A DNA stretch of 64,000 nucleotides from an uncultured Deferribacteres bacterium. GTDB taxonomy: Bacteria > Zhuqueibacterota > JdFR-76 > DREG01. Positions 2,073 through 56,776 of the stretch are shown here, in pieces (positions within the stretch are counted from its first letter, which is position 1; every line of letters starts with the position of its first letter). Position numbers and translations under genes: made by a program. The stretch covers positions 3,870 to 67,869 of the forward strand of contig CAJVYQ010000022.1 in assembly GCA_913009825.1 (NCBI GenBank). Reading direction: 5' to 3'. The notes beneath the pieces are model-generated. The model ran no database searches, was not told the origin of the DNA, and was given only the letters and a program-made list of their open reading frames with translations.

Positions 2073-2147
<75 letters not shown>

Positions 2148-6630: not shown

Positions 6631-6757
6631 GATTAGTGTGGTGGCTTCTTGCAATCCGGAACGTCTTCCTTATTTAAAACTTTTGTGATAGTTAAATTAA
6701 CCTCTGCTATTTTACCCGGCGCACCACACTAATCCCTTATTCGTTACTAATCCCTTA
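6631..6757. repeat. 14-bp inverted repeat (GGATTAGTGTGGTG / CACCACACTAATCC) followed by a tandem 18-bp direct repeat (ACTAATCCCTTATTCGTT x2)
   Basis: Read directly from sequence: arms at 6631-6644 and 6722-6735; the tandem repeat lies at about 6720-6757. Confidence 0.5.
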
Positions 6758-6781
6758 TTCGTTTATGTTGCTAATTTATAA

Positions 6782-7588
6782 TTATTGTTTTAACCATTCA
6801 ATTGCACTCTCTAACATCTCATTATTAACTGAATGACCGCCCATAAAATCCCGAAACGTCACATCATAACCAAAATTTGAGAGAACATTCTTCGCTTTAA
6901 TTCCTAATTCATATTTCACCCTTTTATCATCTTTTCCATGAGCAATAAATATCCTTAAACTTTTAGCAGATTTGATATCATCTTTTTCAAGCCAATTATC
7001 ATCTTTTTCACCAGTAAAAGGGGAAATCAACGGTTCTAACAAACCGGGGCCTGAATGAATGATAAGCCCTTCATATAAATTGGGATTTCTTATACCGGCG
7101 ATATACGCAAAAACGGCTCCTTGAGAAAAACCAAATAAATAGATATCTCCAATATTATATTGTTTCTTCAACGACATTGCTAAATCGCTTACGTATTTCA
7201 CAACTAAATTTGATGCACGTTCAATTAATATCTTATTTCCAGTTGGCCATAAGGCCCAATCATATCCCAATTTCTTATCAACTAACCAGGGATAAGGAGC
7301 TTGAGGAACCGCATAAATAAAATCTGTAATATTTAAACTATCCCAAATTGTAATAAACCGTTCAAGACTACTTCCACCACCATGTAAACCTATTACAAGT
7401 ATATACTTATTTTGAGGATCATAATTTACCGGAAGTTTAATGTTACATTTAAAAAGTGCACTACTTTCAAAATAGATCGGGTTTGTTTTGTTATTACGTG
7501 TTGAATCAATCTGGGATTTTTGAGCATAAATGGAAGACGTGAAAGAAAAAACTAAAAAAAAGAAAAACAGATTTTTAGATTTTGTCAT
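6782..7588 (-). CDS. Secreted alpha/beta-hydrolase (phospholipase/carboxylesterase family)
   Basis: N-terminal signal peptide (MTKSKNLFFFFLVFSFTSSIYA); GFSQGA nucleophile elbow (GxSxG); HGGGS oxyanion region; C-terminal HGKDD. Confidence 0.75.
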   Translation of the reverse strand: MTKSKNLFFFFLVFSFTSSIYAQKSQIDSTRNNKTNPIYFESSALFKCNIKLPVNYDPQNKYILVIGLHGGGSSLERFITIWDSLNITDFIYAVPQAPYPWLVDKKLGYDWALWPTGNKILIERASNLVVKYVSDLAMSLKKQYNIGDIYLFGFSQGAVFAYIAGIRNPNLYEGLIIHSGPGLLEPLISPFTGEKDDNWLEKDDIKSAKSLRIFIAHGKDDKRVKYELGIKAKNVLSNFGYDVTFRDFMGGHSVNNEMLESAIEWLKQ

Positions 7589-8060
7589 TTGAACCTCCTC
7601 TTAAATGAATTCAGTTGCAAGTGAATCTATACTTTAGCAACATAACGGTTTGGGTATCAGCCGATTTTACAGCAGGAGACTTACCTCATTAATAGCATAT
7701 AACTACAACCAAAACCGAACTGAAAAACCAAAAAACTACCGGCTGTAAAATTCGGCTGCACACCCTTGTTAGGGCATTACGTTTGAAAATTGAAATGAGC
7801 GCCGTTTTGCCAAATCAATGATTTTATTAACGTATATTTTTTTTATTTCGATTCTTACTTCTTATTTAATTGTAAACTTAATAAATACCATATTTTTCTT
7901 AACGCGACACTGGTGATTCCAACATTATATTTAGAAAAAAATAGAGCGTGAACAACGTATTTGTAAAATAAACCGGAACGAGGATTAAGTCAAGGAATAA
8001 ATTGATGAAAATGGAAAGTTCAGGCAAAAAAAAAGCGAGAAGTATTTCTCGCTTTTTCCG

Positions 8061-8133
8061 CGTCCCCAAGGGGAGTCGAACCCCTGTTGCAGGATCGAAA
8101 ATCCTGAGTCCTGGGCCACTAGACGATGGGGAC
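8061..8133 (-). tRNA. tRNA-Glu (anticodon TTC)
   Basis: Reverse complement reads GTCCCCATCGTCTAGTGGCCCAGGACTCAGGATTTTCGATCCTGCAACAGGGGTTCGACTCCCCTTGGGGACG; anticodon arm CAGGA-TTTTCGA-TCCTG; closely resembles canonical bacterial tRNA-Glu. Confidence 0.85.
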
Positions 8134-8182: not shown

Positions 8183-8256
8183 GGTGAGAGACGGGACTTG
8201 AACCCGCGACCGCCAGGGCCACAACCTGGTGCTCTGCCAGTTGAGCTACTCCCACC
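8183..8256 (-). tRNA. tRNA-His (anticodon GTG)
   Basis: Reverse complement G(-1)GTGGGAGTAGCTCAACTGGCAGAGCACCAGGTTGTGGCCCTGGCGGTCGCGGGTTCAAGTCCCGTCTCTCACC; anticodon loop TTGTGGC; extra 5' G typical of tRNA-His. Confidence 0.85.
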
Positions 8257-21602: not shown

Positions 21603-22493
21603 TCAACGTAAAAACAAAATAGCCACACCGGAAACGGTCAGAACCGTGCCGGAGATTGCCCGAAAGCTAAATCTCGTTCCGTGAATCTTCATTTCGAGGG
21701 GAATGATAAACACCGGCATGAGCGACATCAGTGTAGCGGCCACACCGGTATTTGTATGTTTAATGGCAACCATGGATAACCAAACTCCCAAAAACGGGCC
21801 GAAGAAAGTGCCGCCCAATAAAAACAGGACAGCCCGGCCTTTATCACGGAATAGTTTCACCGGATTTTGTATTTTTCCCATCAAAACCGCTGCCGGCCAG
21901 ATAAACAGCGTTGCCGCCGCCATGCGAATGACCGTAGCTAAAAGCGGATTGATCTCCATTTGCAAAGCTGACTTTGCAATGACCAATCCGATTGCCTGTC
22001 CCAGAGCGGCAAATAATGCGAAGACAACTCCCGGAATTGAAATAGTTTGCGCATGATTTTGATGGTCGGATTTCTTTTCTAACAGAACGAGAAAAACACC
22101 CGATATGGTTACCCCGATACCCGCGGCAGCTATAAAACTTACGCTCTCATGTAAAAATAAAAAGGCAATGATGGCCGCCATGGCGGGTGAGAGTGAAAAA
22201 ACCAGCAGCGCAAGGCGTGCGCCAAGATGAACAAAAGCTTCAAAAAGAAAACTATCTCCGGCCGCCAACCCGATAACCCCGCTTAAGGCCAGCATCCATA
22301 TCTGAAAACGGGTCGCGGTAAAATCGCCAAATAACAGCAGATAAGAACTGAATAACAGAATTAATGCCAGCGGGATGCGCAGCAGATTCACCTGAAATGA
22401 ACCAACCCGTTGCGAGGCGGCCGAAAAGAACATGGCTGTGAATGTCCAGGAAACGGAAGTTGTCAGTGCGGCGATTTCACCAAGGCAGGGCAT
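21603..22493 (-). CDS. EamA/DMT-superfamily transporter
   Basis: Ten hydrophobic segments in two EamA-like halves; 10 bp downstream of the Hsp70-like gene on the same strand. Confidence 0.7.
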   Translation of the reverse strand: MPCLGEIAALTTSVSWTFTAMFFSAASQRVGSFQVNLLRIPLALILLFSSYLLLFGDFTATRFQIWMLALSGVIGLAAGDSFLFEAFVHLGARLALLVFSLSPAMAAIIAFLFLHESVSFIAAAGIGVTISGVFLVLLEKKSDHQNHAQTISIPGVVFALFAALGQAIGLVIAKSALQMEINPLLATVIRMAAATLFIWPAAVLMGKIQNPVKLFRDKGRAVLFLLGGTFFGPFLGVWLSMVAIKHTNTGVAATLMSLMPVFIIPLEMKIHGTRFSFRAISGTVLTVSGVAILFLR

Positions 22494-22503
22494 TTGAAAT
22501 TTT

Positions 22504-24207
22504 TTATTCCAACTCGAACAATTTGTCTAATAGTTTTTCTTTTAGATTTTCTAAATCGTCCGGGTTATTTTTCCGCACGGCATTTTTTATCTTTGCAATT
22601 AACATTTCCAACCGGTCTTTGTCATCACCATCCTGCATTTCTGCCGTCAGCTTTTGTGCCTTATTGATCAGTGTAGTGATTGCGCTGTCGGAAGAGAGAC
22701 CCATGGACAGAATTTTATTCCTGGCTTCCTCTTTTTCGGTTTCCGAAAGTTTGATTTGTGACGTTTTAACGGTGATCTGTTCCTTTTTGCCGCTATCCTT
22801 ATGTGTGGCGGAAACATGAAGGATACCGTTTATATCCAGATCGAACCGGACAATTAGCTCCGCCGGTTTATCATCCAAAGACACGGGGATGTTTTCAAAA
22901 ACAAAAGAACCAAGCAAAATGTTTTTGGATGCTGTTTTATGTTCGCCCTGAAATACATCGATTTCCACCTTAGTTTGCAAAGGGTGCATCGTATAATAAA
23001 CTTCCGATTTAGTAACCGGAATAACGGTATTTTTGCGTAGAATGACGCTGTAACGATCCTCCCGAATATTGCCAAATTCCACTTCAACCACTTCGATGCC
23101 AAGAGAGTAAGGCGTAACATCTACAAGGATTGAGTCCACATTTTCCCCGGCAATGATGGCTGCCTGAATCGCTGCGCCGATGGCCACACATTCATCCGGG
23201 TTGATTTCCGAATGCAGTTCCTTCTCCATCATCTCTTTCACAACTTCTGCAACCAAAGGAATTCTGGTTGATCCGCCTACCATGAGCACTTTTTCAATCG
23301 CCTCCGGTTTCAATTCGGAATCATCCAACGCTGTTTTGATGGAATCAAGCGTGGAACGAACGAGGGGATCGATCATATCATTGAATGAATTGCGGGAAAA
23401 TTCCGTATTAATATGGAGAGATTTGTTTTTTCTTTTCGCGATAAATTCTTCCACAATTTGCGTAAAAGGCTGATCGGAAAGGCTGATTTTTGCTTCTTCG
23501 GCCGCTCTGTTAAGCCTGGCGAAAGATTTCATATCCCCGCTCAGATCGATGTTATGAGTTTGTTCGAAATCCCTGATCAGAAATTCAACAATTTTAGCGT
23601 CAAAATCGTCACCGCCCAGGTGGTTGTTGCCGTGGCTCGCCCGCACTTCAACAATACCCGAATTAATTTCAACAACCGAAACATCAAAAGTACCGCCGCC
23701 CAAATCATAAACCATAACAAGCTGATCTTCTTCTTTATTAAGACTGTGAGCAAGAGAAGCGGCTGTCGGTTCATTTATAATTCTTACAACTTCCAGGCCG
23801 GCAATTTCCCCGGCATCTTTAGTAGCCTGGCGTTGCGCATCGCTGAAATAGGCCGGAACGGTAATTACAGCTCTTTCAACGGACTCCTCTAAAAAATCTT
23901 CGGCAATTTTTTTCAACCGCCGCAGAATAATGGCAGATATTTCCTGAGGTTTGTATTCTTTGTCGCCCAAAAGGATTGTCTCTGCACTGCCCATCTTTCT
24001 TTTAACCGATTTGACTGTCTTTTCCGGAAAAAGAGTGTACTGGTTTTTTGCCGCCTGTCCGACTAACAGTTCTCCGTCGGCAGAAAGGCCTACCACAGAA
24101 GGCACCAAATGTTGGTCGCCATCCGGAATTATTTGCGGAATACCATCCACCACAACTGCCGCTAATGAATTTGTTGTTCCCAAATCGATGCCGATTATTT
24201 TGCTCAT
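22504..24207 (-). CDS. Hsp70-family ATPase (DnaK paralog, 567 aa, short C-terminal lid)
   Basis: Intact actin-fold motifs: phosphate-1 IGIDLGTTNS, connect-1 VITVPAYFSDAQRQATKDAG, phosphate-2 DLGGGTFDVSVV, adenosine VLMVGGSTRIPLV. Start overlaps the upstream gene by 4 bp. Confidence 0.85.
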   Translation of the reverse strand: MSKIIGIDLGTTNSLAAVVVDGIPQIIPDGDQHLVPSVVGLSADGELLVGQAAKNQYTLFPEKTVKSVKRKMGSAETILLGDKEYKPQEISAIILRRLKKIAEDFLEESVERAVITVPAYFSDAQRQATKDAGEIAGLEVVRIINEPTAASLAHSLNKEEDQLVMVYDLGGGTFDVSVVEINSGIVEVRASHGNNHLGGDDFDAKIVEFLIRDFEQTHNIDLSGDMKSFARLNRAAEEAKISLSDQPFTQIVEEFIAKRKNKSLHINTEFSRNSFNDMIDPLVRSTLDSIKTALDDSELKPEAIEKVLMVGGSTRIPLVAEVVKEMMEKELHSEINPDECVAIGAAIQAAIIAGENVDSILVDVTPYSLGIEVVEVEFGNIREDRYSVILRKNTVIPVTKSEVYYTMHPLQTKVEIDVFQGEHKTASKNILLGSFVFENIPVSLDDKPAELIVRFDLDINGILHVSATHKDSGKKEQITVKTSQIKLSETEKEEARNKILSMGLSSDSAITTLINKAQKLTAEMQDGDDKDRLEMLIAKIKNAVRKNNPDDLENLKEKLLDKLFELE

Positions 24208-25439
24208 AAATTTTTCTCCTGTTGTTTTACGACAATTACCTCTGCATATCTAATTATTTGTTGCCCCTTTTTATACCCTTTCAGGTGCTCTCTGCTGATA
24301 TAGCCTGCGGGAATATCCTGATTGTTCTCAACCCCAACCGCAATATGCTGTTGCGGATCAAATTTTCCCCCAACACTGAGAATCGGTCGGACCCCTTCGT
24401 CTTGCAGCACTTTTAATAAGCGCCGGTAGATCAGTTCAAGCCCTTCCCGCCAGGTTTGAACTGCTTCCGGCAACGCTTCATTCCCGGCATTCCGGGACAA
24501 AAATATTTTTTGCCAGAATTTTTTCTCTTTCTGTGTCGAATCGACCGACGAGGATGAAAGTTCTTGTCCGGGAATGGTTGCCAGCGCTTCGGCAAAACCA
24601 TCCAAAACGGGGAGAAGGTTTTTAATCAATTGCAAGTTTGCCCCCGATTTCAACTCGTTTTTAAGATCCAGCAATTCTTTTACCATTTTTTCCGTACGCT
24701 GAATCCGCCGCTGTAAATCCGGAAAAATTTGGTTGTCCGTCTCCTGTTTTGTTTCAAACAGCATGTTGATTTTGTAAATTTCACGTCCGAATTTCTTCAG
24801 GTTTTTTGCCAGGCCGGAAAGTTCCGTTTGAAAAACCGACAAATCCTGCCCAGATAAAAAAGCGCCGACTCGAATAAGTTCGTCTAACCGCTTATCAAAC
24901 AGCTCCCGGGATTTGTTTGTTATGTTTTCTATTTTATCTTCGTACTGTTGGAACAGGGTCGCGCTGATTTCGGGATGATCCCCGGCAATAAGAAGCATTT
25001 CTTTTTTCAAAGAATCGAACCGATCCCGAAGATAACCGATCGCTGCAGTTGAGGAAAGTAGTGTATCCAGCTTGCGCATTTCCCGGAATACAGTGCCGGA
25101 CGGAGAAGATTTTACTGTCCGGGCTATGTATCGAATCATAGTCAGGGTATTATTTTTTACGATCCGTTTTTTATGGAGGAAATGAAAATACCTGCGGAAT
25201 TTGTATGAAATCGTATTCCTGTGTCGGACGGAAAGCTGCAAGGTTCGTTGATAAAAGAAGTCGTCGAAAAGTTCAACCACTCCGTCATTTTTGAAATCAT
25301 AAATATCCCCGGCAGTAAAAAATGCAGTAAACCGTTCCAATTCGTGTTGATATTCGCAACAGGTTCTCTGAGATATGCCGGTTTTTTGTAATTTTTTCAG
25401 AAATAAAGCAACAGTTAATTGTATTTCCACAACGTACAA
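24204..25439 (-). CDS. GrpE-domain protein with a ~120-aa N-terminal extension and central coiled-coil region
   Basis: C-terminus LPVLDGFAEAL...GGKFDPQQHIAVGVENNQDIPAGYISREHLKGYKKGQQIIRYAEVIV fits the GrpE dimerisation helix and beta-domain. N-terminal ~100 aa loosely resembles a tyrosine-recombinase core-binding (SAM-like) domain (weak, by eye). Confidence 0.65.
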   Translation of the reverse strand: MYVVEIQLTVALFLKKLQKTGISQRTCCEYQHELERFTAFFTAGDIYDFKNDGVVELFDDFFYQRTLQLSVRHRNTISYKFRRYFHFLHKKRIVKNNTLTMIRYIARTVKSSPSGTVFREMRKLDTLLSSTAAIGYLRDRFDSLKKEMLLIAGDHPEISATLFQQYEDKIENITNKSRELFDKRLDELIRVGAFLSGQDLSVFQTELSGLAKNLKKFGREIYKINMLFETKQETDNQIFPDLQRRIQRTEKMVKELLDLKNELKSGANLQLIKNLLPVLDGFAEALATIPGQELSSSSVDSTQKEKKFWQKIFLSRNAGNEALPEAVQTWREGLELIYRRLLKVLQDEGVRPILSVGGKFDPQQHIAVGVENNQDIPAGYISREHLKGYKKGQQIIRYAEVIVVKQQEKNL

Positions 25440-25793
25440 CTACTCTGGTTTTATTGTTGAATAGTCTTCACTGAAATCTGTTTTATATAAATCTGAAAAC
25501 AGATATTCGACGGCGATTAAAAAATCCGTAAAAGTAACTTCCGTAAAATAAGAATCCGGATTGTCAGCCTCCGGTGGCAAAATAAAACTCCCTGCCGGTT
25601 CTTTCAGTATGGAAAAATCGGTTTTAACACGAGCCGGTGTGGATTTAATCTGTTCATAAGCATGCCTGATCGTCTTGAATTTTTCCGGTTCCTTTTCGGG
25701 CGGATATTTTCTAACCAGACGAAAATAAGCTTTCTTGATCTCCGGCGGTGAGGCATTTTGAGAAATATTCAGTGTTTTATACGGATCCATCAA
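25440..25793 (-). CDS. J-domain-like protein with non-canonical PPE in place of HPD
   Basis: DPYKTLNISQNASPPEIKKAYFRLVRKYPPEKEPEKFKTIRHAYEQI aligns to J-domain helices II-III, but the HPD tripeptide position reads PPE. 117 aa; abuts the flanking genes. Confidence 0.65.
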   Translation of the reverse strand: MMDPYKTLNISQNASPPEIKKAYFRLVRKYPPEKEPEKFKTIRHAYEQIKSTPARVKTDFSILKEPAGSFILPPEADNPDSYFTEVTFTDFLIAVEYLFSDLYKTDFSEDYSTIKPE

Positions 25794-28045
25794 TTATCCC
25801 CGGAAAATTGTAATTCTTTGAATAAATCCAACTCTTTACGCATTTTTTTGTGCAGATCAAATACATCTTCAAATCGTTCCGACAGACCGGCTTTTTCAGC
25901 CAGGAATTCCGCGGCCAACTTATGTTCTCTTGATTTTTTCGTCTTGTTCTGCAGCATGTAAACGAAACTCAGATCGATATGAGCATAGATATGGTTTGGT
26001 TCCAGTTTAATACATTTTTTGAAATATTTTTCCGCTTCCGGCAGGTCATCGGCTAAGTATTTTTTGCCAATTTTATAATACCATTCTGCATTTTGGGGAT
26101 CGATTGCAAGCGCTTTTTTAAAATAGCTTTTCGCTTTTCGCCTGGATTTTTCGAAAAGCAACTTTCCCAGTTCAATTAACAGCAGAGGGTCGTTTTTTGC
26201 CAATTTCTCCGCTTTGCTTAAAAAGAAATTCGCTTCCCCGGAATGTTCAAATTCCAGGTACGCCTGACCTGCCTCCATATAAACAACAGGATTATCCGGG
26301 TCGGTTTGGACATAGCTCATGAATAGCGATCGCACGGCTTTCAGGTCATCATATTCCTCTAAATAAAGTTGTGCCAATTCAAAATATCCGCCGAAATCGG
26401 CAGGACTTAATTCGATCTGTTGTTTGTATAATTGAACCGCTTTTTCGATATTGTCTTCTTCAGTCCACTGATTATAAGCCAGTTCATTAATCACCGAAGC
26501 AAGCTGCTTTTTTGCACCAACATTGCCCGGATCAATTTCCAGCACTTTGTTCAGCGTTTCAATTGCTTTGGTCTCATTCCATTCCATCTCCTGAACAAAA
26601 GCCAAATCGAGCATTGCCTGAATATTTTCCGGGTCTTTCAGAAGTAAGTTTTCTAATAACCGGCGCGCGCTGCTCCATTTTTCCAAATCTATGAAAGCTT
26701 CCGCCAATTGAATCTGAATTTGTGAATCATCCGGCTTTAAAGCCGCTAATTTTTGCAATACTTTTAACGAACGGCCGGAATTATTACTATTCTCGTAATT
26801 TTCAATTAGATGCCGGTAGGAAACAGTGAGGAATTCTATCCTTGCTTTGTCATCCGGATGTTTGCGAAGTTCATTTTCATGGAACTGACAAACTTTATTC
26901 CAGTAAATATTGGCTCGTTTCGCGTCCGCCAATTTGTCATAAGCGATAGCTACGTTATGAAACGCATTCAAATCTTCTTTGGCACAAGACAACTGCCACA
27001 TATTAAGCGCTTCCTCCCAGTGATTATTTAGCGCCAGATCGTTTGCCTGCAGAAAACAAACCCGCTCAAGATTTGACAGCGTTGCCTGATGATCCGGTTG
27101 CAAAGATAAAATTGCTCTGAACCATTCTTTGCTCTTTTCCCAATCTTTTTTTCGGGCATACTCCAATCCCTTTCGCCACAAAAGAATCATCAGATTACGG
27201 GAGTAGCGTTCAATAGTAAAACCGTTTTTAAACGCCCGCAGCCAATATTTGTCACACAGATCCCGCTCATTTCTTTTCAGATGAAGCAAACCGGTAAAAT
27301 AATAAAGCAGAGAAGTCAGACGTAATTTGTCATCCCCTTTTATCCTCCGGTAACTCATATCGAACCATGTTTTTGATTCTTCCGTTGAACCCTTTTTAAG
27401 GAATAGCAAACCGGTAAAAAATTGTCCGGTTTTTGTTTGGCGCAGGTTTTCCGGGAATATTTCAAAAGGATGCTGCGCGGTTCCGGCTTTCAATTTATGC
27501 AAAACGGAAAGAATCCCGCTTAAAAAAGGTTCAGCACCCGTTTCGGATAATTCAGATAACTTTTGCGTGTGACCGGATTTAAGATAGGCCATGGCAAGAT
27601 GAAAACCATATCTTTTATTTTCCGGTTCCAGTTCGACGGCCTTGCGATAGGCGTTGCGGGCTTTTTTGTCATTGCCCAAATGTTTATAAGCCAAACCGAG
27701 ATGAAAATAAGTAATGGCCTGATTTTCCTGCAAAGAAATCGCCTGGGAAAGTTCTGCAACAATCAAATGATATTTTTGGGCGACATCCCGGTCACGATAA
27801 TAACCAATTCCGAGGCGAAAATGAGCTTCGGCAAACAATGGCGCAAGTTCGACCGGTCTTTGGTGTGTTGGAATTCTGTTCCATTCACCAACAGCCTTCC
27901 GGAATTTCCCTGCTGCAAAATATTTTTTCCCGGCTGTAAAAAGATGGGAATATTTTCCTTTTAATTGAGCAGCGGTGAAATGATTTCCCGTTCCGCCCGG
28001 TTTATCCGTTTGCGCTTGTTCTTTTTTCTTTTTTTTTCTGCTCAT
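25790..28045 (-). CDS. Large TPR-repeat protein (751 aa) with a lysine-rich N-terminus
   Basis: Many TPR-like 34-residue repeats (recurring W-LG-Y/A-P patterns, e.g. AITYFHLGLAYKHLGNDKKARNAYRKAVELEP). First gene of the four-gene minus-strand operon. Confidence 0.8.
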   Translation of the reverse strand: MSRKKKKKEQAQTDKPGGTGNHFTAAQLKGKYSHLFTAGKKYFAAGKFRKAVGEWNRIPTHQRPVELAPLFAEAHFRLGIGYYRDRDVAQKYHLIVAELSQAISLQENQAITYFHLGLAYKHLGNDKKARNAYRKAVELEPENKRYGFHLAMAYLKSGHTQKLSELSETGAEPFLSGILSVLHKLKAGTAQHPFEIFPENLRQTKTGQFFTGLLFLKKGSTEESKTWFDMSYRRIKGDDKLRLTSLLYYFTGLLHLKRNERDLCDKYWLRAFKNGFTIERYSRNLMILLWRKGLEYARKKDWEKSKEWFRAILSLQPDHQATLSNLERVCFLQANDLALNNHWEEALNMWQLSCAKEDLNAFHNVAIAYDKLADAKRANIYWNKVCQFHENELRKHPDDKARIEFLTVSYRHLIENYENSNNSGRSLKVLQKLAALKPDDSQIQIQLAEAFIDLEKWSSARRLLENLLLKDPENIQAMLDLAFVQEMEWNETKAIETLNKVLEIDPGNVGAKKQLASVINELAYNQWTEEDNIEKAVQLYKQQIELSPADFGGYFELAQLYLEEYDDLKAVRSLFMSYVQTDPDNPVVYMEAGQAYLEFEHSGEANFFLSKAEKLAKNDPLLLIELGKLLFEKSRRKAKSYFKKALAIDPQNAEWYYKIGKKYLADDLPEAEKYFKKCIKLEPNHIYAHIDLSFVYMLQNKTKKSREHKLAAEFLAEKAGLSERFEDVFDLHKKMRKELDLFKELQFSGDN

Positions 28046-28391
28046 AAAATGAGATGACCGGTTTGTAAAAAAAGTGCTGTTTAAAAATAAAAATACTGAA
28101 AAATGTTTTTATCAGTACTAAAAATGTTACCCAAAATCGAGCTGTGAGTTAGCAATTAATATAAAAAATAATTCTCCCTTTAACAATAATATTGTTACGT
28201 TTTTACCACATCGTGCATCACCAGAATAAAGAATGCAAAAAACGCAGCCATCCGGCGATAGCTGTGTAGAAAAATTGAACATTTTGAACTCCCTTTTTGT
28301 ATTGGTAGTTAAATTTATAATTGAAAACAGACGGCATAGTCAAATTTAGCAAACTGTTGCCACAATTTGCAGTCGAAAAAGGAGGTTCAAA

Positions 28392-52329: not shown

Positions 52330-55300
52330 TTATCCGGTCATGGCATAAAATGTTTTATCTGCTATCGCGAACTGCCGCTTTACCGGAAACAGTCGCAGGG
52401 GGATCACTTTTTCCGCAATGAGATTCACTTCGCCGGGAACCCGTGATTGAATTTGTCCGATAATCTGCACTGGCCCGGACAAGTTGGTTTCTCTGCCGAA
52501 TTTTTGATATACGGCGGGAAAGAGCACAACCTCGATGGTACCCCACAAATCTTCGATGGTAAGAAATTTCATATATTCATGTTTCGATGTTGATAACCGC
52601 CGCGACATAATAACCCAGCCGACAACCGTAACTTTTTCTCCTTTCTTTTGCAGCAGATCTACGGACTGTGTAAAATCAATTCCCGGATTGTTTTCTATGA
52701 ACAGAGAAAGTGGATGTGCCGTAACGGAAAATTTCAGCAGTTCCAGTTCATTCAGAATTTTCCGGTATTTGGGATAAGGGGGTAAATTCAGATCGGTAGA
52801 GAATGCCTCCGCCAAATATTTTCTCCGGTGATTTTTGAAAAACAGTTTTATTTTCATCAGGATGACAGCTTCACTGTTTTCAAAAAACCGGAAGCCGTTA
52901 CAGCGTGCCAGATTTTCTGCTTCCCGTTGATTCATTCCCGTTCGTAAAATCACATCGTAGAAATCACGGAAATCTTTTTGCCTTCGTTCCTTAATTATTT
53001 TTTGAATGGTCGACCGGCGCAATTCGGAAATAAAGGATAATCCTACCCGGATTCCGTTATTTTCAACCGTAAAAAGGGAATCGGATTTCAATATGTCCGG
53101 CGGGAGAATTTTGATACCAAGCCGGCGCGCTTCTTCCAGATAAGCGAAGCGGGGATAAAAACCGCCGTCGTTATTGAAAATGGCGGTCATATATTCCGCC
53201 GGGAAATGTTTTTTCAAATAGGCGGTTTGATATGCCAGCAGGCCATACGTGGAACTGTGCGCTTTATTAAACCCGTATCCGGCAAAATGATTGAGCCACT
53301 CCCATATTTTTTCCGCTGTTCCTTTGTCGATCCCTTTCCTTTCGGCGCCCCGGATGAATTTTTGCTGCATCGGTAAAAGGATGTCGTTATTGCGTGATTT
53401 TGTCATCGCCCGGCGCAAAACATCCGCTTCGCCCAATGTAAAACCGGCAATAGCCTGAGCCGCTAACAGAACCTGCTCCTGATAAAGGATGATGCCGTAT
53501 GTGCTTTGCAAAATGGATTTGAGGCTGGGATGTAAATAGGTTGTTTCTTCCAATCCGGCGCGACGGCGAATATAAACGTCTTTCATCCCGCCTTCAGCAG
53601 GGCCGGGTCGGATAAGGGAGATGGCGGCGATCACGTCATCCAGATTTTCGATTTGCATTTTGCGGATCAGTCCCCGCATTCCCGGACTTTCCAACTGAAA
53701 ACAGCCGATAGTGTCCGCCGCTTCGATGAAGGCGATGGTGCCGGGATCATCTTCCGGGATGCCGTTTATGTCGATTTTTATTTTGCGGTGCTGCTCTACC
53801 AATTTTACGGTTTCCGTGATCACACTCAGAGAACGAACACCCAGCAGATCTATTTTTACCAGGCCCAATTTTTCAATGGAATACATATCGTGCTGTGTGG
53901 TGATCAGTCCGCCGCCGGCCACTTCCAGTGGCGTAAAATGAGTAAGCCTGTCTGGCGCAACGACCGTGCCGCCCGGATGAACAGAAAGGTGACGCGGAAA
54001 ACCGGCGATGAAACGGGCCATACGATCAATCTTTTCCAGAACGGTTTCCTTATCCGGTTTGCCATTCTCCTGTGTTCGGGATTGTGACAACAAATTCGCT
54101 TGGCTGGTCAGGTGGGCGCATTCCGGAATATCGGTAATGGCGTGAGGAAGTTCCGTAATGCTGCGATGAGGAAGATTTTTGGTAATCCGCTTGATCTCGG
54201 TTTCCGGTAACCCCATAATTTTGGCAATTTCCCGGATGGAAGAACGCATTTGGAATGTAACAAATGTGGCAATCAAAGCGGTTTTTTCATGCGAGTATTT
54301 CTGATAAACGTATTTAAGCACTTTTTCACGGTTTTTCCAGCAGATATCCAAATCGATATCCGGAGCGTCGGTTCTTTCCGGATTGAGGAACCGTTCGAAG
54401 TACAGTTCATAGCGGATCGGATCTACTTGTGTAATGTCCAAAACATACGCCACCAGACTATCTGCAGCGGAGCCCCGGCCAACACAGGGTATGTTCTCTC
54501 TGCGGCAAAAATCGACAATCTCTTTGACAATCAGAAAATATTCTACAAAACCAAGGTTGGCAATGGTGTTCAATTCATGAGTTAATCGTTGTCTTGCTTC
54601 TGTGGTTACCGGTTGATAACGTTTTTTTAATCCGGAGTTGCATAATTTTTGTAATCGTTGAAATGCTGTTTCACCGGGATTCAAGTCGATTGCCGGGAAA
54701 ACAGGTTTGCCGAGAGAAAATTGGAAATCACATTTTTGCGCAATTTCCAGTGTGTTCAAAAGCGCTTCAGGGGAACTGCGGAAGCGTTTTCCGATCAGGA
54801 ACGGGGATTTGAGATATTGTTCGGAATGGCCGAATTCTGCAACCCGGTTGATTAGCTTATTCTCATCGATTGCCCGTAAAACCAGCCAGATTTCGTATTC
54901 CTGTGAGCGTAGTAGATGCACATCATTGGTCGCCACCGTATTAATTTTTAGCGCTTTGGCCAGATCGGTTGAGTAAATGAGAGAGAAATCATCCCGGGAA
55001 TGAAAACTTTGTAATTCCATGTAAAAATCATCTTTAAAAATTTCTTTCCACAAGAGTGCATTGTGGAAAGCCCGACGACGATTTCTTCTCTTTAAATGAC
55101 GGTAAATACTGCTCTTTTTCCCGCCGGAAAGGCAGATGAGCCCTCCACACCGTTCCGCAATGATGTGTGGATTCATGCGGAAATTGCGATGTCCGCCCTG
55201 CAAATTTCCACGGCTGATGATTTCACAAAGATTCCGGTAACCGGTTTGATTTTTCACCAGAAGAATCAGCGAGGATTCATCTTCCAAAATAATTTCCGCC

Positions 55301-55497
55301 CCGATAATCGGTTTGATCCCCGCCTCCTGTGCCAATTCAAAAAATTCCACCGAGCCGGACAGATTATTTGTGTCGGTTAGTGCCACGGCATTCATGTCCA
55401 GATCGCGTGTGCGGGCAACTAAATTTTGTAGTGTGATGGTGCTGTCGAGCAGTGAAAAGTTACTGTGACAGTGAAGGTGTATGAAGGATGTAGCCAT
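52330..55497 (-). CDS. dnaE2: Error-prone DNA polymerase (DnaE2/ImuC-type Pol III alpha paralog)
   Basis: N-terminal PHP domain (HLHCHSNFSLLDS), Pol III alpha palm/fingers; 1055 aa (shorter than replicative DnaE); immediately downstream of, and overlapping, a Y-family polymerase gene. Confidence 0.75.
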   Translation of the reverse strand: MATSFIHLHCHSNFSLLDSTITLQNLVARTRDLDMNAVALTDTNNLSGSVEFFELAQEAGIKPIIGAEIILEDESSLILLVKNQTGYRNLCEIISRGNLQGGHRNFRMNPHIIAERCGGLICLSGGKKSSIYRHLKRRNRRRAFHNALLWKEIFKDDFYMELQSFHSRDDFSLIYSTDLAKALKINTVATNDVHLLRSQEYEIWLVLRAIDENKLINRVAEFGHSEQYLKSPFLIGKRFRSSPEALLNTLEIAQKCDFQFSLGKPVFPAIDLNPGETAFQRLQKLCNSGLKKRYQPVTTEARQRLTHELNTIANLGFVEYFLIVKEIVDFCRRENIPCVGRGSAADSLVAYVLDITQVDPIRYELYFERFLNPERTDAPDIDLDICWKNREKVLKYVYQKYSHEKTALIATFVTFQMRSSIREIAKIMGLPETEIKRITKNLPHRSITELPHAITDIPECAHLTSQANLLSQSRTQENGKPDKETVLEKIDRMARFIAGFPRHLSVHPGGTVVAPDRLTHFTPLEVAGGGLITTQHDMYSIEKLGLVKIDLLGVRSLSVITETVKLVEQHRKIKIDINGIPEDDPGTIAFIEAADTIGCFQLESPGMRGLIRKMQIENLDDVIAAISLIRPGPAEGGMKDVYIRRRAGLEETTYLHPSLKSILQSTYGIILYQEQVLLAAQAIAGFTLGEADVLRRAMTKSRNNDILLPMQQKFIRGAERKGIDKGTAEKIWEWLNHFAGYGFNKAHSSTYGLLAYQTAYLKKHFPAEYMTAIFNNDGGFYPRFAYLEEARRLGIKILPPDILKSDSLFTVENNGIRVGLSFISELRRSTIQKIIKERRQKDFRDFYDVILRTGMNQREAENLARCNGFRFFENSEAVILMKIKLFFKNHRRKYLAEAFSTDLNLPPYPKYRKILNELELLKFSVTAHPLSLFIENNPGIDFTQSVDLLQKKGEKVTVVGWVIMSRRLSTSKHEYMKFLTIEDLWGTIEVVLFPAVYQKFGRETNLSGPVQIIGQIQSRVPGEVNLIAEKVIPLRLFPVKRQFAIADKTFYAMTG

Positions 55498-56677
55498 TTT
55501 TATCCATCCTGTATTTTGATTTTAAAATATGTGTTTTCGCCGGCAGCATGGCTGTGAAGCCGAAGCGATTGCGTATTTCATCGACGCTGTTCAGTAATTT
55601 TTTATTTTTACCGTCCATTGTAAAAAAGTCGGGCTGCCGGTTTTCCGGTTCAATCTCAGAGACGGAAATGTGAACGTGCCGGATACGGATTCTTCGTTCC
55701 TGCAACCGGTTGTAGAGCCGGTGTACCATGGTATTCAGAACGGCGGCGTCTTGTGTGTGTAACGGTAATTTTTGACCGATGGAAGAAATTTTAAAATCCG
55801 AGTACCGCACACGTAAATGGATGCAGCCACAGGTTAATTGCTGTTTTCGTAATTTCATGGCAATTCGTTCACAAAGGTACTGAAAGGTGGCCATCGCCAC
55901 TTGTATATCCTGTGTGTCTTCTTCAAAGGTTGTTTCACGGCTGATTTGTTTCGGTATATGCAGCGGCTTCACTTCACGCGGATCGATGGCGTTTGCATAT
56001 TGCCAGATTTTAAGTCCGTTGGCGCCCAACAACTGTTGGAGTGCCGGTTTGGGAATCTTTGCCAGTTGGCCGACAGTCTGAATACCCATTTGGAATAGAA
56101 GTGTTTCCGTAACCCGGCCAATTCCTAAAATTTCCGCAACCGGCAGAGGATTGAGAAATTTCCGCTCCCTGCCCGCCGGGACATAGGTGACCCCTCTTGG
56201 TTTGTGCTGCGCCGAGGCGATTCTGCTGATCAATTTTGAGGAACCGATGCCGATTGAGACAGGTATGTTAAGCTTTTCATCAATTGTTTTCTGCATCTCT
56301 CCGGCCGCCGTTTGCGGATCGGCAAATTTTCGCTGTGTACCGGTCATATCAATGTAAGCGTCATCCAGGGAAGTGAATTCGACCAGGGGAGAATAACCGG
56401 AAAGGATTTTCAGAATTTCTTTGGATATAAATTTGTAATGGAGAAAATTTCCTTTTAAAAAAACGGCCTGCGGACAGATCCGTTTGGCCTCGTGGAGCGG
56501 CATACCGGTTTTTACACCCAACGCTCTTGCTTCGTAACTGCCGGTATGGACAACGCCGCGCTGGTGGGCGTAACCGCCCACAATAACCGGCTTGCCGCAC
56601 AGGAAAGGGTTGAGACTCTGTTCTGCAGAGGCAAAAAACGCATCCACATCGAGGTGGAAAATAAGTTTCTGTTGCAT
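55460..56677 (-). CDS. dinB: Y-family DNA polymerase (DinB/Pol IV-like)
   Basis: Catalytic acidic residues present (IFHLDVDAFFASAE, SLDDAYIDMT), unlike ImuB; HhH region; overlaps the dnaE2 start by 38 bp. Start set at the second ATG (MQQKLIFHLDVD). Confidence 0.75.
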   Translation of the reverse strand: MQQKLIFHLDVDAFFASAEQSLNPFLCGKPVIVGGYAHQRGVVHTGSYEARALGVKTGMPLHEAKRICPQAVFLKGNFLHYKFISKEILKILSGYSPLVEFTSLDDAYIDMTGTQRKFADPQTAAGEMQKTIDEKLNIPVSIGIGSSKLISRIASAQHKPRGVTYVPAGRERKFLNPLPVAEILGIGRVTETLLFQMGIQTVGQLAKIPKPALQQLLGANGLKIWQYANAIDPREVKPLHIPKQISRETTFEEDTQDIQVAMATFQYLCERIAMKLRKQQLTCGCIHLRVRYSDFKISSIGQKLPLHTQDAAVLNTMVHRLYNRLQERRIRIRHVHISVSEIEPENRQPDFFTMDGKNKKLLNSVDEIRNRFGFTAMLPAKTHILKSKYRMDKNGYILHTPSLSQ

Positions 56678-56776
56678 GAAAATCTCCAATAATAGTGAAC
56701 ACACGACCACTTGTTAGAGTATATAAATGTTCACCTGAAAAGTCAAGTATTTTTTAATAATTTGGCTTTATTTTTT

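Follow-up and report, generated by a model that had tools for sequence, protein, structure and literature searches.

A putative GrpE-type exchange factor with an N-terminal recombinase-like core-binding domain in an Hsp70 cassette of uncultured bacteria

GrpE acts as a homodimer and opens Hsp70 at its nucleotide cleft. Of the best-known bacterial Hsp70 cofactors it is regarded as the least modular, having a short tail along with a helix and a beta domain, and it is the J-domain proteins that are usually credited with directing the Hsp70 cycle to its targets. The N-terminus of GrpE is normally a short disordered tail of well-conserved length, located near the groove in which Hsp70 binds polypeptides, where it competes with client rebinding, and the GrpE helices serve as thermosensor (PMC8215388). 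The present analysis deals with a gene, here called CB-GrpE, found in a stretch of 64,000 nucleotides (the window) of contig CAJVYQ010000022.1 (assembly GCA_913009825.1) from an uncultured Deferribacteres bacterium. Its predicted product combines in one protein a core-binding (CB) domain of the tyrosine recombinase type, a linker and a GrpE moiety, an architecture that can be considered practically certain, and it is encoded together with a tetratricopeptide repeat (TPR) protein, a small J-like protein and an Hsp70 paralog. No description of the CB-GrpE fusion or of the four-gene cassette was found in the searchable literature, and the architecture is real, conserved, rare and apparently undescribed.

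Canonical GrpE proteins, such as those from Escherichia coli (1DKG) and Geobacillus kaustophilus (GrpE-DnaK, 4ANI), share with CB-GrpE the long helix, the LLPVLD and C-terminal beta-domain motifs and the adjoining Hsp70 gene. They differ in having about 180-210 amino acids with a short disordered tail (PMC8215388), whereas CB-GrpE has about 200 extra N-terminal residues and an insertion of about 40 amino acids. According to the available passages of a study on Myxococcus xanthus, the second GrpE of this bacterium, MXAN_6672 (GrpS), is co-transcribed and interacts with MxDnaK2/SglK, and it is therefore comparable to CB-GrpE in that a dedicated Hsp70 has an exchange factor of its own (PMC11019930). 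Unlike the cassette described here, MXAN_6672 and mxdnaK2 form a two-gene operon, and no J-domain gene adjoins either MxDnaK gene; the same passages mention no recombinase domain, TPR or J-like gene, and the likeness is one of logic. The GAP1-N2 GTPase-centred conflict systems (Kaur et al. 2020, PMC7159879) bring together HSP70, GrpE and proteins fused to DnaJ or TPR, and they resemble the cassette as non-housekeeping neighbourhoods of Hsp70, GrpE, J domain and TPR. In contrast to these systems, no GTPase, FNIII, vWA or effector domain is encoded by the genes inspected in the flanks of the cassette, up to about 10 kb to either side. The prokaryotic Hsp70 types listed in a 2021 review are DnaK, HscA and HscC only. 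The gene and its domains are the following:

24204..25439, minus strand: open reading frame (ORF) delimited mechanically, 411 amino acids, TTG start
24204..25430, minus strand: CB-GrpE coding sequence, 408 amino acids plus stop, GTG start at 25430
25137..25430, minus strand: core-binding domain of the Phage_int_SAM_1 type, predicted four-helix bundle, residues 1-98
24819..25136, minus strand: helical linker, family-specific and of variable length, residues 99-204
24204..24818, minus strand: GrpE moiety, residues 205-408, with long helix, four-helix-bundle region and C-terminal beta domain

The mechanical ORF begins with the codons TTG TAC GTT GTG GAA ATA. The GTG at position 25430 has been taken as the true start because the deposited protein P0001 (408 amino acids, N-terminus MEIQL) and all the homologues begin there, the N-termini of the latter (MELQ, VEIR, MEIR, MNIS, MLLR and MELY) coinciding with the GTG-derived one, and this codon is most likely the biological start of CB-GrpE. 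A previous examination of the DNA letters without database searches (the sequence-only reading) had given a length of 411 amino acids, which has to be corrected to 408, since its 5' end was 9 nt too long. Only 9 nt separate the CB-GrpE start from the upstream J-like gene, and the CB-GrpE stop overlaps the ATG of the Hsp70 gene (ATGA overlap).

A homology search revealed 13 distinct CB-GrpE proteins with the same architecture, all from uncultured bacteria, namely that of the window and those of the metagenomic loci L001-L007, L012, L013, L015, L016 and L092. The sole named member of the family is L092, a contig of a metagenome-assembled genome (MAG) labelled Calditrichaeota, with a CB-GrpE of about 426 amino acids, and a scan of the contigs of GTDB representative genomes gave as sole match an unrelated GrpE from Methanolobus. 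Mean pairwise identity among the 13 members was 31% for the CB domain, 34% for the linker and 44% for the GrpE part. In seven closer pairs, dN/dS values ranged from 0.07 to 0.39 in the CB region and from 0.15 to 0.30 in the GrpE region. The CB domain is under purifying selection, to a degree similar to that of the GrpE part.

These data bear on the explanation that the fusion is an artefact caused by mis-assembly, a frameshift or a wrong start, or a decaying recombinase remnant upstream of grpE. Homologues are very few, the mechanical ORF start is 9 nt off and the window protein on its own lies under the threshold of the Pfam recombinase domain (15.2 versus 22.3 bits), as this explanation would predict. 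Against it, the fusion occurs in single ORFs of 13 distinct proteins from independent contigs and different samples, with 31-44% identity per region, coinciding N-termini and low dN/dS in the CB region (0.07-0.39), and the genes are packed or overlapping in an operon-like manner. Both an assembly artefact and a decaying remnant are excluded for practical purposes because the fusion is conserved and dN/dS is low, which leaves this explanation with a negligible probability.

In the first 100 residues or so, the sequence-only reading had noted a loose resemblance by eye to the SAM-like domain of tyrosine recombinases. Profile and structure-based comparisons have substantiated this beyond a loose resemblance, and residues 1 to about 98 are homologous, as judged from the sequence, to the CB domain (Phage_int_SAM_1) of Xer-type tyrosine recombinases. 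The window protein alone matched the Pfam model Phage_int_SAM_1 with E 0.026 (15.2 bits, under the 22.3-bit threshold) and the NCBIfam models XerC (E 8.7e-5, residues 13-140), XerD (6.7e-4) and XerA (3.5e-3). An exhaustive search of 1.84 billion representative proteins carried out with a hidden Markov model (HMM) of family residues 1-230 revealed five clusters spanning the whole profile, together with a shorter variant, P0008 (312 amino acids), and another 50 proteins that matched positions 1 to about 100 only. Phage_int_SAM_1 was found in all 50 of these non-family proteins, and the catalytic Phage_integrase domain also in 36. In the reverse test, a score of 58 bits (E 2.7e-17) was obtained for the window protein with an HMM made from those recombinases alone. 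When the CB region of the 13-member family was aligned by hhalign with 22 full-length recombinases, a probability of 99.4% was obtained (E 1.3e-21, 97 columns), and the full-length comparison gave 98.9%. Eleven of the 13 fusion proteins matched SAM_1 individually at E <= 0.05; P0008 reached 35.6 bits, above the gathering score, and the relatives P0008 and P0059 pass the threshold or carry a prior SAM_1 annotation. An AlphaFold2 (AF2) model of residues 1-115 displayed four helices with a predicted local distance difference test score (pLDDT) of about 95 for residues 1-90, and a Foldseek search with this model gave TM scores of 0.65-0.71, in agreement with the CB fold. The N-terminus is thus not a generic coiled coil or low-complexity region.

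Searches of PDB sequences with smaller queries were less informative. The single N-terminal sequence and a two-sequence profile gave weak matches only (9i5v_14, with an Xer-like N-terminus, and BAR and ROP coiled coils), and a seven-sequence profile detected XerD at E 0.016 only. When the family CB profile was compared with PDB sequences, 9i5v chain 14 came out best (E 1.3e-4). This chain of 401 amino acids, deposited as 'Ribosome-associated translation inhibitor RaiA', has an Xer-type-CB-like N-terminus and may represent another fusion, natural or at the annotation level, of a recombinase module with an unrelated protein.

The family retains a recombinase signature formed by S20, R/K22, Y27, E30-L31 and R79-x-F-F-x-x-L85, and the helix charges are as in recombinases, with helices A and C acidic and helices B and D basic. 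The net charge of helix D was +1 to +9 in the 13 members, with a mean of +4.0 versus +3.6 in the 50 recombinases. CB-GrpE resembles the Xer-type CB domains of XerD (1A0P), the stand-alone 3NRW and lambda Int (2OXO/1Z1B) in the signature, the four-helix fold and the basic helices B and D; unlike Xer-type recombinases, it has no catalytic domain, is fused to a chaperone cofactor and has no recombination site or mobile element nearby. Recombinase-derived structural neighbours included MrpR of SPbeta (8A0A), SroF of phi3T bound to DNA (9RD5), a plant ALOG protein bound to DNA (8P5Q) and yeast Ndc10 (3SQI). These four are transcription or kinetochore DNA-binding proteins, and we know of none of them being linked to a chaperone cofactor.

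The remainder of a recombinase was searched for between the CB domain and the GrpE moiety. No Pfam match to the Phage_integrase catalytic domain (PF00589) was obtained in CB-GrpE, residues 99-204 showed no catalytic-domain similarity to recombinases (hhalign probability 0.1%) and no protein outside the family matched these linker residues in the exhaustive search. That residues 99-204 conceal a degenerate catalytic domain is ruled out by the value of 0.1% for this region alone; the full-length hhalign alignment extended to column 166, an extension that was not supported when the region was tested separately. CB-GrpE, the rest of which is GrpE, is accordingly not a tyrosine recombinase and has no catalytic residues. 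Where the sequence-only reading had predicted a long coiled coil, AF2 gave residues 112-285, approximately, as helical with low confidence, the full-length model made from a two-sequence alignment having a pLDDT of 42 and being usable for secondary structure only. Residues 99 to about 115 are poorly conserved (pLDDT 48-58). Most of the linker is deleted in P0008 (L004 9016-9954, about 84 amino acids) and in the L015 protein (6673-7650, about 77 amino acids), at different positions, so that spacer length is not critical; both end domains are always kept.

The GrpE identity of the C-terminus was borne out: Pfam GrpE (PF01025) matched residues 229-402 with E 5.3e-24 (85.2 bits versus a cut-off of 25.8, profile positions 24-165 of 165), and the solved GrpE chains 4ANI (2.4e-8), 3A6M and 1DKG were also matched. 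Its extent had been underestimated at the last 130 residues or so in the sequence-only reading, because homology starts at about residue 205 and takes in the long helix, whose motif GRExYKxN...ExKQE is common in the family alignments to cassette GrpEs without a CB domain. Across the fusion family there is little or no variation in the motifs LLPVLDG and FDPxxHIAVG...LKGY...IRYAEVxV, and an insertion of about 40 amino acids is located in the four-helix-bundle region. All of the approximately 20 NCBIfam GrpE models scored far under their cut-offs (best equivalog, 61.7 bits versus 137), so that CB-GrpE is considered a divergent paralog and not the housekeeping GrpE; the nearest plain GrpEs found were encoded by ordinary hrcA-grpE genes. 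By these profile matches, residues 205 or so to 408 are classified as a bona fide GrpE of a divergent kind, and a function of CB-GrpE as nucleotide-exchange factor is very probable.

CB-GrpE is the third gene of a cassette that runs from 28045 to 22504 on the minus strand of the window, with tightly packed or overlapping genes. The other members of the cassette are the following:

25790..28045, minus strand: TPR protein, 751 amino acids, first gene of the cassette, multiple TPR Pfam families, no signal peptide apparent
25440..25790, minus strand: small J-like protein, 116 amino acids, Pfam DnaJ E 1.1e-11, HPD changed to PPE, conserved C-terminal segment of about 55 amino acids
22504..24207, minus strand: Hsp70/DnaK paralog, 567 amino acids, ending in LLDKLFELE, Pfam HSP70 E 1e-158

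In every fusion locus the J-like gene is followed by CB-GrpE and then by an Hsp70 paralog (566-589 amino acids), the J-like gene being directly upstream of CB-GrpE in all of them and the Hsp70 gene downstream in all related loci that reach that far; a TPR gene (product of 732-779 amino acids) heads the cassette wherever the contig is long enough. The MAGs in which cassettes were observed bear the labels Calditrichaeota, Chloroflexi and Blastocatellia. The flanking genes are housekeeping and differ among loci, those of the window being AlaDH, EamA, MBL, YchF, TrkAH, LptD and DnaE2/ImuB. When the cassette proteins were analyzed with PADLOC, the only matches were one of a generic kind to TPR (PDC-M71B) and one to DruC that was marginal (E 0.005). 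A defence system or mobile element is rejected, given the lack of a real PADLOC match, the housekeeping neighbours and Rfam matches limited to tRNAs.

Sister cassettes lacking the CB domain, for example in Chloroflexi, keep the order TPR, J-like, GrpE and Hsp70 as far as the contigs reach (GCA_018003515.1 from Caldilineaceae, L093; L018; L023/L024), and in L017 and L020 only the J-like and GrpE genes, the latter without CB, are present before the contig end. The sister-cassette GrpEs analyzed (188-408 amino acids; GCA_018003515.1, L017, L018, L020 and L023) contain neither a CB domain nor any further Pfam domain, and the extensions found in sister cassettes are unrelated. The existence of these cassettes indicates that a GrpE already present in the cassette received the CB domain as a clade-specific addition, and because TPR, J-like and Hsp70 proteins are constant in them, the CB domain is not needed by these constant partners.

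The J-like protein passes the Pfam DnaJ threshold (45.1 versus 27.8 bits) and belongs to a family of 103 clusters at 90% identity, of which only a few members are named, their MAGs being labelled Calditrichaeota, Chloroflexi, Caldilineaceae, Anaerolineales and Blastocatellia; the window protein is 58% identical to a J-like protein from Calditrichaeota. At the position of H33-P34-D35 of E. coli DnaJ, the sequence is PPE, TPE or SPE in the 8 loci aligned, and J-like proteins of this xPE type were noted in the window, L001-L007, L012-L018 and L092-L094. The residues of Hsp70 that we take to contact HPD are kept in the cassette paralog: R167 (EVVRIINEPT), the linker Leu (ILVDVTP), a Gln (AAIQAA) and a Pro (NTVIP), presumably so numbered in E. 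coli DnaK. Loss of the His from HPD abolishes stimulation of the Hsp70 ATPase in all systems tested (PMC8215388). The J-like protein would accordingly be a J domain that works in spite of its unusual sequence, or else a regulator without stimulating activity.

Many larger J-proteins (about 400-510 amino acids) with xPE or xPD in place of HPD were also observed, in L019, L021-L022, L025-L068, L071-L074, L077, L081, L086 and L091, the search pattern used for them itself demanding xPE, so that their number gives no estimate of frequency. Measured from the start of an Hsp70 paralog, many of their genes lie about 1.7-2.3 kb downstream; in some of these loci a GrpE of about 200 amino acids is encoded further upstream, in the order grpE-hsp70-J. 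J domains without the His and linked to Hsp70 paralogs appear widespread.

The Hsp70 paralog scored 580 bits with the NCBIfam DnaK model, under the equivalog cut-off of 648. Comparison of the Hsp70 and TPR protein termini in the window and in L001-L007, L015, L016, L018, L075, L092 and L093 revealed a conserved acidic Hsp70 C-terminus, LLDK(L/M)(F/Y)ELE, with LLFEAEE, MYEDRD and LFYLED in sister cassettes, and TPR proteins with a Lys-rich, polybasic N-terminus (MSRKKKKKEQ..., MAGKKKRARNR...) and an acidic C-terminus of the DLF/ELF type. The EEVD tail of Hsp70 is bound by TPR co-chaperones, according to the available passages of PMC8913300. The pairing in the cassette of a large TPR protein with an Hsp70 that has a conserved acidic (F/Y)ELE-COOH end may recall the eukaryotic Hsp70-TPR proteins CHIP and Hop; unlike the eukaryotic case, the cassette motif is not EEVD, and the resemblance is a pure analogy.

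These observations can be accommodated in a model in which CB-GrpE would be the dedicated exchange factor of a specialised Hsp70 machine composed of TPR scaffold, J-like protein, GrpE and Hsp70 paralog. In one bacterial clade, the cassette GrpE would have gained at its N-terminus an Xer-type CB domain without the catalytic domain, connected to the dimerisation helix of GrpE by the helical linker. Like canonical GrpE, the GrpE part would open the adjacent Hsp70 at its nucleotide cleft and, as a homodimer, would display two CB domains beside the client site of Hsp70. The CB domains would be the targeting module; their most likely ligand would be DNA or a different nucleic acid, contacted as in recombinases through helices B and D, which are basic. 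The exchange of nucleotide and the release or capture of clients would thereby be confined to DNA-bound protein complexes. Targeting of the dimeric exchange factor by its CB domain, most likely to DNA or another nucleic acid, is the best explanation overall, with a probability of roughly 0.5. A targeting or adaptor role of some kind is probable for the CB domain, and the targeting or regulatory role put forward in the sequence-only reading would fit a clade-specific add-on under purifying selection. As the sister cassettes keep TPR, J-like and Hsp70 proteins without it, the CB domain is unlikely to act as glue for these partners and more likely adds a clade-specific target. Nucleic acid would be the most likely target because the helix charge pattern mirrors that of recombinases and most signature residues are retained, and DNA in particular is proposed tentatively. 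That the CB-GrpE dimer sits on specific DNA sites or structures, where the private Hsp70 machine would remodel or dismantle DNA-bound complexes, is a more doubtful extension.

Several points weigh against the targeting of CB-GrpE to nucleic acid. The AF2 model of the CB domain was obtained with a recombinase-dominated alignment and is therefore not independent of sequence homology, and AF2 run on no more than two sequences of the family reproduced the four helices with a pLDDT of only 56-81. The Thr of S-x-x-T, near-invariant in recombinases, varies in the family (T/S/I/G), residue 79 is changed from Arg to Leu in the P0006/L013/L092 group and the net charge of the whole CB domain spans from -2 to +6, so that as a pointer to DNA binding only the charge of the single helices was informative. 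The surroundings of the cassettes contained no recombinase or mobile element, and a conserved candidate DNA site was not found there either. The CB domain of recombinases clamps DNA jointly with the catalytic domain, and the isolated CB domain binds weakly (lambda Int, Xer).

Some of these points are those expected if the CB domain had been exapted as a protein-protein module, devoid of nucleic-acid binding, that docks the exchange factor on a client or on another factor, like the structurally related eukaryotic MRG domains. The loss of the S-x-x-T Thr, the nearly neutral overall charge of several members and the failure to find a DNA target near the cassettes agree with it. The cassette moreover includes a large protein with TPR repeats, which are typical of scaffolds that bind proteins, and this has been counted in its favour too. 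On the other hand, sister cassettes keep TPR, J-like and Hsp70 proteins without a CB domain, the basic helices B and D, which contact DNA in recombinases, are kept in 13 of 13 members, and the CB sequence is far nearer to recombinases of the Xer type than to MRG-type domains of any kind. A protein-binding module of this type is considered rather unlikely.

It has also been considered that the N-terminal module could be an intramolecular regulator without external ligand, either a folded replacement of the tail that competes for the client groove or an element of stability or temperature sensing. The canonical tail lies near the Hsp70 groove and blocks client rebinding, and the helices act as thermosensor (PMC8215388); furthermore, the variable length of the linker is compatible with this role and its poorly conserved residues 99 to about 115, with their low pLDDT (48-58), could serve as such a tail. 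However, a plain tail or helix would do for this purpose, sister cassettes use unrelated extensions, and maintenance of the CB signature and charge polarity at 31% mean identity points to a ligand-binding surface, so that an internal regulator seems improbable. As regards a candidate DNA target, consensus scans of the region upstream of the cassette gave the following tentative features, with no demonstrated link to the protein:

28046..28264, minus strand: upstream non-coding region
28264-28245, minus strand: terminator-like hairpin
28186-28158, minus strand: promoter-like site
28094-28117: 10-nt inverted repeat TACTGAAAAA-N4-TTTATCAGTA, about 50-70 nt 5' of the TPR start codon

Unrelated AT-rich inverted repeats were present at the same position in L002 (937-983) and L004 (5826-5861). 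No motif was common to the upstream regions of different cassette loci, and no further copy of the half-site TACTGAWAAA was found in the window. The inverted repeats have been rejected as evidence of a target site, being AT-rich, without a shared motif and with a half-site that is single in the window.

An exchange factor that itself carries a folded, conserved, recombinase-derived domain suggests that client release and exchange could also be spatially targetable. DnaK, DnaJ and GrpE act in the initiation of lambda and plasmid replication, and CB-GrpE, if tethering to DNA is true, would be a hard-wired version of this action; to our knowledge, it would then be the first recombinase CB domain exapted into a bacterial chaperone cofactor. 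The questions opened concern the role of the GrpE N-terminus near the client site, a J domain without the His of HPD and the exaptation of recombinase domains. The analysis has also exposed a J-like protein without this supposedly indispensable residue and an Hsp70 acidic tail beside a TPR protein.

Other genes of the window deserve a brief mention. A gene for an EamA-family transporter (21603-22493, minus strand) starts 10 nt past the Hsp70 stop and may be co-transcribed with the cassette in the window genome; it was not found 3' of Hsp70 in L001, L004, L007, L092 or L093, the loci with downstream genes listed. The sole Rfam matches in the window, which contained no rRNA, were three tRNA genes:

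2073-2146, plus strand: tRNA gene
8061-8133, minus strand: tRNA gene
8183-8255, minus strand: tRNA gene

At 52330-56710 (minus strand), an IMS-family gene (impB/mucB/samB, 416 amino acids) overlaps the start of a gene for a DNA polymerase III alpha-type protein (1055 amino acids), and this pair appears to be a mutagenesis cassette of the imuB-dnaE2 type, seemingly unrelated to CB-GrpE.

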